Origin: Chlamydiales bacterium
GTDB lineage: Bacteria; Chlamydiota; Chlamydiia; Chlamydiales; JAAKFR01
NCBI GenBank assembly: GCA_024233495.1
Contig: JACKPM010000001.1
Location: forward strand, 258,584-322,583
Length of the DNA stretch: 64,000 nucleotides
Direction: 5' to 3'
A program made the translations under genes and the position numbers. Under the pieces are notes generated by a model. The model made no database searches. It was not told the DNA's origin and saw nothing but the letters and a program-made list of their open reading frames with translations. Of this stretch, positions 31,451 to 46,236 are shown piece by piece. The stretch's first letter is position 1, and every line of letters starts with the position of its first letter.

Positions 31451-32479
31451 TTATTTCATGGCTTGGACGATTTCGCTTAGGCGCGCTGGAGGAATTTCTC
31501 CTCCAAAATTTTCTATTGCGGCGCTTCCCATCAAATTTCCAAAAAGTGCACACCTCTCCAATGATTCACCATGCAGGTAGCCATAGAGAAAGCCAGAGGC
31601 AAAAAGATCTCCCCCCCCTGTCGAATCAACAACGGTGGTAGGAATAGCAGGCTGGTGAATAAAATCTTTTCCTGATGCGACATAACATCCTTTCTCGCCG
31701 ATTTTGACAACTGCTACATGACAAAAATTACTTAGAAAGCGACAGGCGTGTTCAGGATCGAGGTGGGTGAGTGCATACGCCTCATCCACATCCATAAAAA
31801 GCACGTCGATGTAGCTATTGAGCAATCCCCAAAGGCGCTCTCGATACTTCTCTCCAATATTTTGATTGCCGATGTCATATGAGACAGTTGCGCCTTGCTC
31901 CATCGCAAGTCTAGCTGCTTTTTCAACAACCCCTCGATTGGGGATCAAATACCCCTCAATGTGCACCAAATCGACCCCTTTGAAATATTGGGGGAGAATA
32001 TCCTCTTCACACGTCTCTTTTTCAGAGTCGATGAAGGTGCAAAAGGAGCGTTCTCCATCTGGAGTGACTAGAGAGATGACGTGCGCTGTAGGGGTATTTG
32101 ACCGAGTAACGAGGGGAGTGATGCCACACTTCTCCATCTCATAAATTAAAATGTCTCCCCTACGGTCGTAGCCCACATTGCCTGTGAGCGCTGACGGAAT
32201 GCCAAGAGAGGCCAACCCTTTAATGGTATTTGCAACACTCCCACCAGTCATCAATGTCGGCTCTGCCTGAGACCGTGAGAGCGCCAGAACTTCTGAAAAA
32301 GCAGCCCAATCGAGATCTTTCCACCCCCTTTTAGGGAGATAGACTGCCTCTAAAAACCTCTCATCAACAGGTTGAATGTAGTCCCAAACATAGGAGCCTA
32401 TCCCTAAAACACGGTAGTGCGCATGGATTGAAAAATTGAGAAGGCAAAAAAGAAGAGTGATGCGTATAGTGGCTTTCAT
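31451..32479 (-). CDS. PfkB-family carbohydrate/nucleoside kinase with a signal-peptide-like N-terminus
   Basis: DSTGGGDLFASGFLYG (PfkB signature 2) and a GG dipeptide region. The only plausible ATG is Met47 of the ORF (MKATIRITLLFCLLNFSIHA). Confidence 0.7.
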   Translation of the reverse strand: MKATIRITLLFCLLNFSIHAHYRVLGIGSYVWDYIQPVDERFLEAVYLPKRGWKDLDWAAFSEVLALSRSQAEPTLMTGGSVANTIKGLASLGIPSALTGNVGYDRRGDILIYEMEKCGITPLVTRSNTPTAHVISLVTPDGERSFCTFIDSEKETCEEDILPQYFKGVDLVHIEGYLIPNRGVVEKAARLAMEQGATVSYDIGNQNIGEKYRERLWGLLNSYIDVLFMDVDEAYALTHLDPEHACRFLSNFCHVAVVKIGEKGCYVASGKDFIHQPAIPTTVVDSTGGGDLFASGFLYGYLHGESLERCALFGNLMGSAAIENFGGEIPPARLSEIVQAMK

Positions 32480-33197
32480 GCGCTTCAGTATTATCACGAT
32501 CACGTTTAATGCGGAAGAATTTTTAGAAAAAACACTTGATTCTGTCGCTGCGCAAGAGTTCTCTTCTTTTGAACATATTATTTGGGATGGGGGAAGCACA
32601 GACAATACGTTGCGCATCGCTGAAAAGTATGACGCTCAAGTGCATCAAGGGAAAGATGGCGGCATTTCTGATGCAATGAATAAAGGGGCGGCTTTGGCAA
32701 AAGGGGAAATCTTACTTCACCTGCACGCTGATGACTTTTTGCCCCACCCAAAAGTGCTTGCCTATGTCGATACAGCATTCAAGCAGCACAACCCCTCTTG
32801 GCTCTATGGGCAGGCGTATACAGTTGATCAGCAAGGAGAGGTAATGCGCGAGTCAAAGTATCGTCCCTTTTCTCACCGTAAATTGCGCCGTTACAACACA
32901 ATTACGCATCCGGCAACCTATGTAAAGCGAACTTTATTTGAAGAGATAGGAGGCTTCGACCCCACCCTCAGCTACTGCATGGACTACGACTTGTGGCTCC
33001 GCCTTGCAAAAAGGGCAACGCCTCACGTATTGCCATCTACAATCGCCTCTTTTAGGGAGCATAGTGAGTCTCTCTCCACTTCTCAACCGCGCAAGGTCGC
33101 TGATGAGGCATATAGTGTGCGCAATCGCTATGTTACCTCCCCTTGGGAGAGATATAAGTCGTATTGTACGTGGAGGAAGCGGTGTGCTAGCACGTAA
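32478..33197 (+). CDS. Glycosyltransferase family 2 (WcaE/WcaA-like)
   Basis: MRFSIITITFNAEEFLEKTLDSV...WDGGSTDNT...HADD. The start could also be at 32436 or 32460. Confidence 0.8.
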   Translation: MRFSIITITFNAEEFLEKTLDSVAAQEFSSFEHIIWDGGSTDNTLRIAEKYDAQVHQGKDGGISDAMNKGAALAKGEILLHLHADDFLPHPKVLAYVDTAFKQHNPSWLYGQAYTVDQQGEVMRESKYRPFSHRKLRRYNTITHPATYVKRTLFEEIGGFDPTLSYCMDYDLWLRLAKRATPHVLPSTIASFREHSESLSTSQPRKVADEAYSVRNRYVTSPWERYKSYCTWRKRCAST

Positions 33198-43700: not shown

Positions 43701-45839
43701 ATGAGACACAAAGGCATAAGAAATTTAATCTATATACTGGGAGTTGTTGTTGCACTAGTCGGCGCGGCTATTGTAGGGCAGCTTTTTTTTGCCGTTCGAA
43801 AAGATGCGCTTTTTAGTGTGAATGTCATTGAGGCGGTCAGCATCTTTTTGCTCGGCTTTTCGCTTATTTTTCTTCCAAATTTTCGTATTTTTTCTCTCTT
43901 CGTATCGTTTGCTTTAGGTGCTCTTTTTTTCTTGCGTATCGGTTATGTTTGCTCCCCTTTTCGGGACAACTGTTTTACTGCTCTAGAGATCCAATTTGTT
44001 GAGTCGACGATCCCTATTTTTATCTACGTGTGGATCTCTGTTTTTGCTCTTTTTTTCACTGCGATTGCGCTCTTCTTTACTACTGTTTTGTCAAAGAGTA
44101 GAAGCTGCTTATGGATTGGGGGAGTCTTTGCAGGGTGTGTGCTTGCCGCCGAACTTGTTGTCGTCGGGTCATATATTGCCGATATCCCTCTAAGAGCAAA
44201 CTGGGATCTTTTGGTCACTTTGACGGTGGTCGATGCAAGCGCCTTTATCCTTGGTATGGTGGGTCTTTTGCTTTATGCGGCAGAGCGGCTCTATGTTTTA
44301 AAGAGAACATATTTTGGTGTTTGGGTTTCGGTCTTAACCGCGACAGTAACCTTAGGGATCATGATGAGCTCTTGGGTGGGAATCGCTGCACGTGAACGCG
44401 GTCTAGCTTTGGTGCGCATTGGGGATGAGGCTAGCATCTATCAAGAGGCCGCAAGCGAGCATATTCGAGAGTTTTTCTTTGCCATTGATCGCTGGGTGCG
44501 TAGATGGGAGCAGTATCCTGAGGGAGTGCGCGAAGAGCTCTCCACAGAAGATGCACAGCAATACCGCGCCTTTTACACCTACATTCAGTATATGGCGATT
44601 GAAAAAAAGGATGGAACGGTTGAGCTTGCAGAAGGGAAAAAGCTCCCTGTTACGGCTAAGCCAGTGGAAGAGCAAGAGTTTTCCCTAAGCATCTTTGGAA
44701 GAGAGTTCTTTGGCCCTGTCATTTTAAGCGATGGAGATGTGAGCTTAGATGTGCGCATTCCCGTTACAAGTGTTGAAGGGGAAGAGCGCTTCTTCCACCT
44801 AGTAACAAACCTTCCCCAAATGATCACCTTCGAAACTCCTTACGCAATCAAGAAAAACTATGCGTTTCGCGGCTACCTCGATCACAAACTCTTTTTATCT
44901 GAGGGAAAAGAGCAACAAGTTTTCGAGAAGCGGTACAAAGACTCTTCTACCTGGATCTTATCAGGCGTGAAGATCGAGTTTGAAATGTGGCCAAGAGACT
45001 TGCTACAGCCCGACCTTAAGCCTGCAACACGTATCTACCAGCTATTTTTGGGATTTGCTGTCTCTTTTGCTCTAGGACTTTGTGTCTTTTATGTTTTCCG
45101 CACGGGCTTGCAAAAAAGGAGAGCTGAAGCGCTCTCATTGGAAAAAACCTTTTTTGTAGCCAATATCTCCCATGAGTTGCGAACGCCCCTTCACGGCATT
45201 ATGGGAACCCTTTCGATTCTTGAGACCATGGAATTTTCAAAAGAGCAAGCAAAGTGGATTGCAATGTTGAAGGAGTCGAGTCAAAAGCTTTTCATGTTGA
45301 TTAGCGAACTGATCGATATTTCAAAAATTGAGCTTTCTGGGGTGCAATTGACACTCTCAAATATCGATTTAGAAAAAGTGGTACATGCTGTTTGTCAGGA
45401 GAATTGCGCTAAGGCAAAAGAGAAAAATCTAGAATTAACCTTTGATTACCCCGCTGATCTACCCAAGCGTTTCTTACTTGATGAGACCCGTCTCTATCAG
45501 GCACTGACACACCTTCTAGACAATGCCATAGCTTTTACCAACGAGGGGAGAGTCAGTGTTGAGGTGAAAGGGGAGCTCTCTTCAAAAGGGGTATACAATC
45601 TCCACCTCACTGTGCGTGATACAGGTGTTGGGATTGAGAAAAGCAATCAAGTGAAGATCTTTGAGCAGTATAAGCACATCGATGTGCGCAGTGCAAAAGG
45701 CTCTGGTTTAGGACTTGCAATTGTAAAAAGCTTCGTCGAAAGTATGGGAGGGAGAGTTGATGTGCAAAGTGAGCCTGAAAAGGGAAGTGCCTTTACTCTT
45801 CAGATAACAGCAGAAAAAGTAGAAAGCAGTGACGGTTAA
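43701..45839 (+). CDS. Membrane sensor histidine kinase (multi-TM N-terminus, extracytoplasmic domain, HisKA, HATPase_c; no receiver)
   Basis: 712 aa. H-box FFVANISHELRTPLHGIMG, N-box LLDNAIAFT, G-boxes DTGVGI and GSGLGLAIV. It starts 1 nt after the TPR gene stop. Confidence 0.85.
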   Translation: MRHKGIRNLIYILGVVVALVGAAIVGQLFFAVRKDALFSVNVIEAVSIFLLGFSLIFLPNFRIFSLFVSFALGALFFLRIGYVCSPFRDNCFTALEIQFVESTIPIFIYVWISVFALFFTAIALFFTTVLSKSRSCLWIGGVFAGCVLAAELVVVGSYIADIPLRANWDLLVTLTVVDASAFILGMVGLLLYAAERLYVLKRTYFGVWVSVLTATVTLGIMMSSWVGIAARERGLALVRIGDEASIYQEAASEHIREFFFAIDRWVRRWEQYPEGVREELSTEDAQQYRAFYTYIQYMAIEKKDGTVELAEGKKLPVTAKPVEEQEFSLSIFGREFFGPVILSDGDVSLDVRIPVTSVEGEERFFHLVTNLPQMITFETPYAIKKNYAFRGYLDHKLFLSEGKEQQVFEKRYKDSSTWILSGVKIEFEMWPRDLLQPDLKPATRIYQLFLGFAVSFALGLCVFYVFRTGLQKRRAEALSLEKTFFVANISHELRTPLHGIMGTLSILETMEFSKEQAKWIAMLKESSQKLFMLISELIDISKIELSGVQLTLSNIDLEKVVHAVCQENCAKAKEKNLELTFDYPADLPKRFLLDETRLYQALTHLLDNAIAFTNEGRVSVEVKGELSSKGVYNLHLTVRDTGVGIEKSNQVKIFEQYKHIDVRSAKGSGLGLAIVKSFVESMGGRVDVQSEPEKGSAFTLQITAEKVESSDG

Positions 45840-46236
45840 GCCACAAATTGAATTCAAAGACGCTCGTGTTTTAGTTGCTGAGGATAATGAATTTAGTATC
45901 GAAATCCTTAGGTACATGCTTTCTCTTTTTGGAATCAATGCTGATTTAGCTTCGGATGGTACAGAGGCGGTAGAGAAAGTAAAAGAAAAAGAGTACGACC
46001 TACTTATCCTCGATATCCATATGCCCAATATGGATGGCAATGAAACAGCGCGAGAAATTCGGAAGATGTCTATTAAACAACCTGTTTTAGTCGCTCTTAC
46101 AGCGAGCGTCTTTCAAAAGGAGAAAGAGCAGTCGATGGAAGCGGGATTTGATGACTATTACAATAAGCCGCTCGAGCTTCCAGGCCTCGAATTAATCTTA
46201 GTAAAATATTTAAAAGAAAAAATTGTTTCTCATTGA
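45829..46236 (+). CDS. Stand-alone CheY-like receiver protein
   Basis: 135 aa. VLVAEDNE, LLILDIHMPNMDG, ALTAS, YNKPL. The GTG start overlaps the kinase stop. Confidence 0.85.
   Translation: MTVKPQIEFKDARVLVAEDNEFSIEILRYMLSLFGINADLASDGTEAVEKVKEKEYDLLILDIHMPNMDGNETAREIRKMSIKQPVLVALTASVFQKEKEQSMEAGFDDYYNKPLELPGLELILVKYLKEKIVSH

Follow-up and report, generated by a model that had tools for sequence, protein, structure and literature searches.

To our knowledge, every characterized synthase-dependent exopolysaccharide system, namely, those for cellulose, poly-N-acetylglucosamine, alginate, Pel, and Nfr, is switched post-translationally by cyclic di-GMP (c-di-GMP). In the Pga system, c-di-GMP binds at the interface between PgaC and PgaD, while BcsA senses it by a PilZ domain. 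The c-di-GMP receptor PelD is a degenerate GGDEF domain with an I-site. NfrB senses c-di-GMP by a C-terminal MshEN domain (PMC8669469). In the present study, we analyzed a 64-kb stretch of Chlamydiales DNA (contig JACKPM010000001.1; hereafter, the window) that carries a locus of two divergent operons (Table 1). In one of them, the gene for a family 2 glycosyltransferase (GT2) synthase is translationally coupled to the genes for a HEAT-repeat protein and a regulator. The other is predicted to encode a secreted tetratricopeptide repeat (TPR) protein, the β-rich C-terminal domain of which carries an outer-membrane targeting signature, followed by a sensor kinase and a receiver. We consider, with a probability of roughly 0.6, that the locus encodes a synthase-dependent polysaccharide secretion system switched by a His-Asp phosphorelay and not by a recognizable c-di-GMP receptor.

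Genes and coordinates were taken from an open reading frame (ORF) map of the window, domains were assigned with Pfam and NCBIfam, and junctions were read from the DNA. The nine ORFs lay exactly at the coordinates given in the original prediction for this stretch, and their Pfam domains agreed with it. The junctions it had listed and a shared control region of approximately 200 bp were also reproduced. The genes for the histidine phosphotransfer (Hpt) protein and the regulator meet at TAGTG, in which TAG and GTG share one base, and the regulator and HEAT genes meet at ATGA. A single nucleotide separates the HEAT gene from the synthase gene and the TPR gene from the kinase gene (TAG-C-ATG or TAG-G-ATG; both forms were read from the DNA), and the kinase and receiver genes overlap by 11 nt. 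The small GT2 and GT1 genes converge on the synthase gene, as had been described, and the GT1 and synthase genes overlap by 17 nt at their 3' ends.

The synthase had been proposed to be a processive enzyme with DAD and Q-R-T-R-W motifs. Both motifs were present: D94, D168xD170, E274-D275, and Q317-R318-x-R320-W321 were invariant in a 40-sequence alignment. The AlphaFold2 (AF2) model was confident (predicted local distance difference test score [pLDDT], 88.8; predicted template modeling score [pTM], 0.88) and comprised one N-terminal transmembrane helix, a GT-A domain, an interface helix with QRTRW, and four C-terminal transmembrane helices. In a Foldseek search of the PDB with this model, hyaluronan synthases ranked first (CvHAS and XlHAS1; E 1e-15, template modeling score 0.62–0.66, ~470 aligned columns), followed by BcsA (E ~1e-12), the yeast and oomycete chitin synthases (Chs1/2), and plant CesA. 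The top 15 matches were all processive enzymes (13 hyaluronan synthase and 2 BcsA chains), and the sole hit among the top 40 not labeled as a processive synthase was PcManGT, a non-processive membrane GT2, at ranks 16–17. Sequence identity to the hyaluronan synthase structures was 14–17% in Foldseek, and phmmer against the PDB returned no hyaluronan synthase match. Since the motifs are invariant, the model is confident, and the structural matches are to hyaluronan synthase, BcsA, Chs, and CesA, we assign the protein to the processive synthases, as originally proposed.

The nearest curated sequence family was PgaC/IcaA (TIGR03937; 2e-33), which covered most of the catalytic and transmembrane core at 115.9 bits against a cut-off of 422.3. 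The BcsA model TIGR03030 scored 24.2 bits against a cut-off of 699.1, and no C-terminal PilZ domain was found with Pfam. NodC was also among the NCBIfam matches (1.2e-08), and a lookup of the window synthase by its exact sequence returned no match. Taken from its sequence and model, the enzyme is predicted to be a processive, membrane-integrated GT2 synthase-translocase of its own clade. A role as a lipid-linked monosaccharide transferase was rejected on the basis of QxxRW, the full transmembrane bundle, and the hyaluronan synthase-like fold. The polymer cannot be read from the synthase sequence. At the related locus L089 (positions 1581–3829), genes of the UDP-glucose/GDP-mannose dehydrogenase family and for an NAD-dependent epimerase/dehydratase are located between a GT1-like gene and the synthase. 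They hint at a uronic-acid or modified amino-sugar component or precursor. The window does not have these genes at the corresponding position.

The partner of the synthase is the HEAT protein. It has an N-terminal hydrophobic helix followed by KQRRVRREEK and, by the positive-inside rule, is predicted to be a single-pass inner-membrane protein with a cytoplasmic HEAT domain. Its repeats are of the PBS-lyase/alphaRep type, and an informative relative was not found in the PDB. We sampled 79 GT2 loci from species-representative genomes among the matches listed in a genome-collection scan; the phyletic counts rest on this sample. Synthase homologs with 35–41% identity occurred, among the matches listed, in Gemmatimonadota, Bacteroidota/Balneolaceae, Actinomycetota, Acidobacteriota, Firmicutes, Myxococcota, Nitrospirota, Cloacimonadota, Lentisphaeria, and a Halobacteriales metagenome-assembled genome (MAG). 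A HEAT gene was located directly upstream of the GT2 gene at 69 of the 71 loci with enough upstream sequence, from Gemmatimonadota to Nitrospirota and including one archaeon. A receiver domain, in turn, was encoded directly upstream of the HEAT gene on the same strand at 54 of 67 loci. This HEAT-proximal receiver was closest to the C-terminal receiver domain (REC) of the window regulator in 48/60 cases, with mean bit scores of 60 against that domain and of 44 and 35 against the two other canonical receivers.

What lies upstream of the HEAT gene varies from a lone receiver (Bacteroidota) or Hpt-REC (Gemmatimonadales) to Hpt-REC-GGDEF-REC. The window genes at 34187–39067 fit this arrangement, which we named the REC-HEAT-GT2 module from gene neighborhoods. 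The original prediction had presented the system as chlamydial. This held for the locus, but not for its core: judging from these neighborhoods, the receiver-HEAT-GT2 core is pan-bacterial and not a chlamydial invention, and the HEAT protein appears to be the universal partner of the synthase. Since the universal neighbors of the synthase are a HEAT adaptor and a receiver, we propose a second, phosphorylation-based control logic for this class of enzyme.

The regulator, which had been described as a REC/degenerate-GGDEF/REC protein, does have these domains. However, that description was incomplete because a further three domains were found at the N terminus. The order is a pseudo-REC (residues ~1–120), Hpt (His171), a second pseudo-REC (~250–375), REC (~380–500), degenerate GGDEF (~510–663), and REC (~680–800). 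Both canonical receivers have the DD, D, T/S, and KP residues, the Hpt motif is H171-K-I-A-G, and residues 383–499 match the PleD family in NCBIfam (2e-23). Apart from the degenerate GGDEF, Pfam, NCBIfam, and alignment revealed no output domain, DNA-binding or otherwise, in the 803 residues. The GGDEF-like site reads GESCF and has no RxxD; a role as an active cyclase was rejected for this degenerate site. We aligned seven regulators, five of which were Chlamydiales-type, one from a more distant Chlamydiales MAG, and one from a Cloacimonadota MAG. All of their sites were degenerate (GESCF, REALF, SPGYF, PDGGF, DEGNF, EKGQF, and DDNTF), and an RxxD I-site was not conserved. The lack of a visible c-di-GMP receptor and modifying enzyme, which had been predicted, was borne out by Pfam and NCBIfam, which revealed no PilZ, MshEN, PgaD, or deacetylase domain in the nine proteins. 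Pfam also found no deacetylase, epimerase, lyase, or glycoside hydrolase domain in 32436–46557.

Across phyla, GGDEF was present in 12 and Hpt in 10 of the 21 regulators sampled upstream of HEAT. The GGDEF site was degenerate in the Actinomycetota, Acidobacteriota, and Chlamydiales loci and intact (GGDEF/GGEEF) in the regulators of L014, L085, L027, and L072, which belong to Nitrospiraceae, Rossellomorea, Neomarinimicrobiota, and Lentisphaeria, respectively. Judging from these sequences, cyclase activity appears to have disappeared several times, with the C-terminal receiver being retained. The frequency of the REC-GGDEF-REC architecture across phyla, together with the intact sites, which imply an ancestral cyclase role, may also be taken to mean that a nucleotide second messenger still acts as the proximate activator. 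In that case, c-di-GMP or a related ligand made elsewhere would be bound by the regulator through its GGDEF-like domain, by the HEAT protein, or by the synthase, and the relay would only tune this step, as PleD/CelR-type receiver-cyclases do for cellulose synthase. We regard this as unlikely. All seven aligned sites are degenerate and lack a conserved I-site, the Gemmatimonadota and Bacteroidota versions consist only of Hpt-REC or a lone REC without GGDEF, and PilZ and MshEN were not found in any protein of the locus. Furthermore, we know of no Chlamydia species that uses c-di-GMP.

The residue set for a relay from histidine kinase to receiver to Hpt to receiver is complete in the locus, and the claim that every element of such a relay is encoded in the cluster was sustained. 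The kinase, inspected by eye, has approximately seven N-terminal hydrophobic segments, an extracytoplasmic region of ~220 aa, one more segment, HisKA, and HATPase_c. It has an SHELRTPL H-box and the N and G boxes, and carries no receiver domain. Its closest NCBIfam models are the hybrid kinases TorS, ArcB, and BarA. The best NCBIfam matches of the 135-aa receiver are on the receiver segments of ArcB, BarA, and TorS, and the pocket is complete (acidic pair, Asp in LDIHMP, Thr, and the KP Lys). The upstream gene had been called an Hpt protein. It does have Hpt, and in addition carries a pseudo-REC; over 204 aa it is 40% identical to regulator residues 33–233 (E 4e-40), and therefore appears to be a paralog of the regulator N terminus. 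HK(L/I)AG(N/S)AASYG is conserved in both Hpt modules, and an orthologous extra Hpt gene is present in L092. The order of transfer, kinase to receiver to Hpt to terminal receiver, is inferred from these domains.

In the TPR protein, a signal-like sequence at the N terminus is followed by ~900 aa of TPRs and then by a C-terminal domain of ~340 aa (residues ~911–1253). This domain is the best conserved part among four chlamydial orthologs, of which the window copy has ~400 extra TPR residues. A word-indexed search with the domain returned only three relatives, and an exhaustive profile search returned 143 clusters at E ≤ 1e-3; L001, L011, and L089 carry a Chlamydiales label, and the window is chlamydial by its own evidence, given below. 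The domain is located at the extreme C terminus in essentially every full-length member listed, and in 41/44 sampled members, TPRs precede it and no annotated family covers it. Of 142 members, 135 have Phe as the final residue, in most cases together with W or Y at position -3, and many members begin with a signal-like sequence. Such a C terminus is classically seen in proteins that the BAM machinery inserts. The AF2 model of the domain, based on a four-sequence alignment, has two helices followed by ~15 long strands in hairpin order and is all-β. Aromatic residues account for 16% of the domain, and a crude amphipathic-strand scan gave nine clear segments only. We conclude from the model and the sequence pattern that the domain is probably an outer-membrane β-barrel of a new, unannotated family. 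Of the TPR plus β-barrel-like protein originally predicted, the TPRs were confirmed, whereas the barrel is only probable and has ~15 modeled strands instead of the 16–18 expected.

At an E value of up to 10, Pfam assigned no family to the C-terminal domain, and a 20-sequence profile found no match among all PDB sequences. In hhalign, the probability against YaiO-type neighbors was 2%. Sequence-detectable homology to YaiO, PgaA, and BcsC was rejected on the basis of these three results. The PgaA model TIGR03939 matched the TPR region only (97.1 bits against a cut-off of 366.7), and the BcsC model NF008520 scored 86.5 bits against 858. A distant member of the TPR-barrel family was noted beside an ankyrin-repeat protein on a short contig (L091, 1105–3876) with no synthase in view, which suggests that membership of the family need not imply a link to a GT2.

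At Bacteroidota-type diderm loci, the neighboring outer-membrane gene carries YaiO in all 10 cases and TPRs in six. Two unrelated TPR-barrel families thus appear to have been recruited to one conserved cytoplasmic-membrane core. Their attachment to the same core is, of the indirect arguments, the strongest in favor of our proposal that the barrel proteins work for the synthase. It also bears on the nature of the product. The GT2 may make a short chito-oligosaccharide-like molecule, a periplasmic glycan, or an envelope-anchored polymer and not a secreted exopolysaccharide, with the TPR protein acting as a scaffold or adhesin anchor. The synthase is small (476 aa) like NodC, no modifying enzyme is encoded at the locus, the barrel was not confidently modeled and resembles no known exopolysaccharide porin, and monoderm relatives (Clostridium, Rossellomorea, and Actinomycetota) need no porin. 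We nevertheless consider this explanation improbable. The full-length fold matches polymerizing and translocating synthases (template modeling score 0.66, ~470 columns), the two barrel families adjoin the module in different diderm phyla, and the chlamydial TPR-barrel stays linked to it through three gene orders: divergent, convergent, and co-directional.

The gene set was co-conserved in seven other loci, one of which is a single co-directional array (Table 1), and no orthologous cluster with a different assigned function was found; co-conservation in related genomes had been anticipated. The records for L001, L011, and L089 are labeled Chlamydiales, while L003, L004, L090, and L092 are metagenome or read-archive contigs that were grouped with them by similarity and synteny. 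L011 is the Chlamydiales MAG HK-STAS-VERR_A-3, in which the N-terminal receiver of the regulator is canonical and not degenerate. L092 was the sole locus from the metagenome scan with a closer alignment. Since L089 lacks both kinase and receiver and L003 lacks the receiver, the input to the relay appears to be variable. These gaps may also indicate that signaling and glycosyltransferase genes are neighbors without a functional link, in which case the relay would control another output and the locus would be partly decayed. The presence of further sensor genes at 53263–57521 is in line with this because the assignment of partners is not unique. However, such an explanation is very unlikely: receiver-HEAT-GT2 adjacency at 54/67 loci spans phyla and involves receivers of one orthologous lineage, neighboring genes overlap at their start and stop codons or are 1 nt apart, L011 combines the genes in one array, and all ORFs of the window locus are intact with conserved catalytic residues.

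Based on these results, we propose that the phosphorelay-switched system operates as follows. The multi-span kinase would sense a signal and phosphorylate the stand-alone 135-aa receiver, the proposed first acceptor. From there, the phosphoryl group would move to the His of either Hpt module and on to the canonical receivers of the regulator (803 aa). Once phosphorylated, the C-terminal receiver of this protein may dock on the cytoplasmic HEAT solenoid, which would activate or release the synthase. The nascent chain would cross the inner membrane through the synthase's own channel, be guided across the periplasm by the TPR array, and exit through the C-terminal barrel. The degenerate GGDEF may be the relic of an ancestral receiver-cyclase that serves here as a scaffold or dimerization module.

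Several points weigh against a phosphorelay-switched secretion system. Each step of the mechanism is read from domains and gene neighborhoods, and we searched for REC-HEAT or HEAT-GT2 fusions, which would support physical contact, and found none. The absence of the kinase and receiver from L089 and of the receiver from L003 makes the relay input variable. The intact GGDEF/GGEEF sites in the upstream regulators of some phyla indicate that c-di-GMP may be the real activator, at least where the site is intact. Regarding export, the model of the C-terminal domain was of low confidence (pLDDT, 49.5; pTM, 0.45), and its Foldseek matches, although only to outer-membrane barrels (BamA, FadL, and Cir), were weak (E ≥ 0.013). 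No sequence link of this domain to PgaA, BcsC, AlgE, or YaiO was found by Pfam, hhalign, or the PDB profile. The locus also has no periplasmic modifying enzyme, unlike Pga, Bcs, Alg, and Pel. Moreover, the source is a MAG-type sequence.

Table 1. Genes and control region of the locus, in window coordinates, and gene order at seven related loci (for L011, coordinates within that locus).
Feature	Coordinates	Strand	Pfam match or gene order
Small GT2 (253-aa maximal ORF)	32436-33197	+	Glycos_transf_2, 4e-22
GT1/GT4-type glycosyltransferase	33004-34203	+	Glycos_transf_1, 8.4e-07
GT2 synthase, 476 aa	34187-35617	-	Glycos_transf_2, Glyco_tranf_2_3, Glyco_trans_2_3; weak Chitin_synth_2
HEAT-repeat protein	35619-36659	-	HEAT_2, 4e-25
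Regulator, 803 aa	36656-39067	-	Response_reg x3 + Hpt + GGDEF
Hpt protein, 222 aa	39067-39735	-	Hpt, 4e-07
Divergent control region, 202 bp	39736-39937		Between both operons
TPR protein, 1253 aa	39938-43699	+	TPR families, massive TPR content
Sensor histidine kinase, 712 aa	43701-45839	+	HisKA + HATPase_c
Stand-alone receiver, 135 aa	45829-46236	+	Response_reg, 4.3e-23
Small conserved protein, 95 aa, two adjacent hydrophobic segments	46270-46557	+	No match
L001, L004			Receiver, kinase, and TPR-barrel divergent from regulator, HEAT, and GT2
L003			Layout of L001/L004 without the small receiver
L092			Layout of L001/L004 with an extra Hpt gene; GT2 beyond the end of the retrieved locus
L089			No kinase, no receiver; UDP-sugar dehydrogenase and epimerase between GT1-like gene and synthase
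L011	1964-13834		One co-directional array: regulator, HEAT, kinase, kinase, receiver, GT2, TPR-barrel
L090			Distant TPR-barrel family member (E 3e-21) convergent with REC (153 aa)-HEAT-GT2

The divergent control region contains a 23-nt inverted repeat with arms at 39764–39786 and 39906–39928, one just upstream of each operon. The arms are 96% complementary, with the core AAAAAACAAT(C/T)CGCTATATA. The repeat was unique in the window and had no match in 100 shuffles, and a search of the related loci did not recover it. As a paired promoter/operator element, it could co-regulate both operons. Rfam revealed no family and no riboswitch in this region, and a promoter/terminator scan found sites to be no commoner than in shuffles. 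The likely start of the Hpt gene is the ATG at 39732.

The best NCBIfam match of the small GT2 was TIGR04283, below its cut-off. Its gene is syntenic with that of the synthase in L003 and L089 and is absent beside the synthase in L001. The protein is of a soluble type and possibly accessory, and its link to the system is weak. In L003, the genes for the 354-aa GT1 ortholog and the small GT2 overlap by 56 nt; by analogy, the true GT1 start is probably near 33140. The ORF at 46270–46557 has counterparts in L003 (49% identity) and L089 (28%), located, as in the window, between the TPR/kinase operon and scpB. With its bilobed hydrophobic pattern, this 95-aa protein is reminiscent of chlamydial inclusion-membrane proteins. 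It could also be a small subunit of the system, although its membership is uncertain.

The locus is flanked by core genes (EF-G, pfkB, ScpAB, Tsp, UppS, CdsA, and ArgRS) and its GC content is unremarkable. Recent horizontal insertion was rejected on these grounds, and nothing suggests that the locus is part of a mobile element. The window is assigned a chlamydial origin because it carries an OmcB gene (Chlam_OMP6; 21142–22833) and a 1506-aa SecD/SecF-family ORF (7716–12236, minus strand), far longer than ordinary SecD or SecF, because the best matches of its synthase are Chlamydiales MAGs, and because it is syntenic with a Chlamydiales contig (L089) bearing a Chlam_OMP gene. The density of two-component genes in the window is high for a chlamydial genome. 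The second sensor set at 53263–57521 (plus strand) comprises an 836-aa histidine kinase and a 449-aa CHASE and PAS protein without a kinase domain, in a stretch of lower GC (0.39–0.41) with a strong positive GC skew. Two paralogous genes for tail-specific proteases (S41, PDZ) are located at 2573–4480 (minus strand) and 47800–49788 (plus strand). One S41 protease gene lies directly beyond scpAB, next to the locus, an arrangement kept in L003 and L089. Another GT2 gene (305 aa), followed by a 369-aa ORF without a Pfam match, lies at 23361–25366 (plus strand), downstream of ispF and near omcB. A 375-aa ORF at 50549–51676 (plus strand) without a Pfam family adjoins the tRNA gene at 50155–50227 (plus strand), the only one in the window.

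No paper on a HEAT, GT2, and receiver module or on exopolysaccharide systems in Chlamydiae was found in the full-text literature, the coverage of which was incomplete. Within this limit, the claim that such a system is undescribed for Chlamydiae stands. For Chlamydiae, a lineage known above all for its minimal signaling, the locus implies a four-step phosphorelay and a glycan, on the surface or secreted, that is under regulation. If this is true, supposedly host-dependent bacteria would have a signal-controlled extracellular or envelope polysaccharide. However, the interest of our results rests less on a chlamydial exopolysaccharide locus than on a widespread receiver- and HEAT-gated synthase and a candidate porin family. 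The receiver/HEAT module occurs in hundreds of genomes from at least 10 phyla, including monoderms and one archaeon, and is apparently unstudied; the C-terminal domain defines a new candidate outer-membrane protein family of 143 clusters. We tentatively raise the possibility, which we find attractive but still somewhat doubtful, that the triad represents an unrecognized pan-bacterial form of direct phosphorylation gating, in which a phospho-receiver would dock on a membrane-anchored HEAT adaptor that turns the synthase on and c-di-GMP control is replaced or, in some lineages, superseded, and to which environmental Chlamydiae would have added the split relay and a new family of TPR-porins. The system is compact, with six to nine genes, and is open to direct testing by heterologous expression.

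Among known systems, the locus matches the synthase-dependent class (Pga, Bcs, and Nfr) in its synthase and its TPRs and, given the low-confidence model, only probably in its barrel. It departs from this class in lacking a dedicated c-di-GMP receptor, whether PilZ, a PgaCD interface, MshEN, or a PelD-like I-site, and a periplasmic modifying enzyme. The small inner-membrane GT2 of Pga/Ica is the closest by curated sequence family and likewise has a small membrane partner. Furthermore, the TPR and C-terminal barrel architecture of the exporter PgaA matches the one predicted for the TPR protein. However, the synthase and PgaA scores are below the equivalog cut-offs, PgaB deacetylase and PgaD are absent, the partner is a HEAT protein, and control appears to be exerted by a phosphorelay and not by c-di-GMP binding between PgaC and PgaD. 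NfrAB and BcsA/BcsC also pair a processive GT2 with an outer-membrane protein of TPRs and a β-barrel. In contrast to them, the locus has no MshEN, PilZ, or BcsB-like periplasmic subunit, and the sequence of its probable barrel shows no detectable link to BcsC or any PDB chain.

Class I hyaluronan synthases, such as those of Chlorella virus and vertebrates (HAS1), are the best structural match; they are similar in size and are self-contained polymerase-translocases, as the window synthase would be. In the streptococcal hasAB operon, a UDP-sugar dehydrogenase gene is located next to the synthase gene, as in the relative L089. However, sequence identity is only 14–17%, and these synthases are not known to have an obligatory HEAT partner, receiver, or porin. 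A functional analogy, for which we claim no homology, is offered by fungal Chs3, a processive GT2 that depends on the α-solenoid repeat activator Chs4 (Skt5). That activator has Sel1-like instead of HEAT repeats, and the system is eukaryotic and has no phosphorelay.

On the signaling side, the regulator resembles PleD, WspR, and CelR in that a REC precedes the GGDEF, there is no DNA-binding output, and the gene is tied to an exopolysaccharide synthase. It differs from them by its degenerate GGDEF without an I-site, its Hpt, pseudo-receivers, and C-terminal receiver, and the element conserved across phyla is this receiver and not the cyclase. The set of kinase, receiver, Hpt, and terminal receiver is as complete as in ArcB, BarA, TorS, and the Syp relay of Vibrio fischeri, which serves a polysaccharide locus. 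In the window, four separate genes encode these modules, and Hpt is present twice. Known multi-step relays end in transcription factors or partner-switch proteins. In contrast, the terminal acceptor of the relay proposed here has no transcriptional output and is encoded beside the enzyme that it presumably controls.

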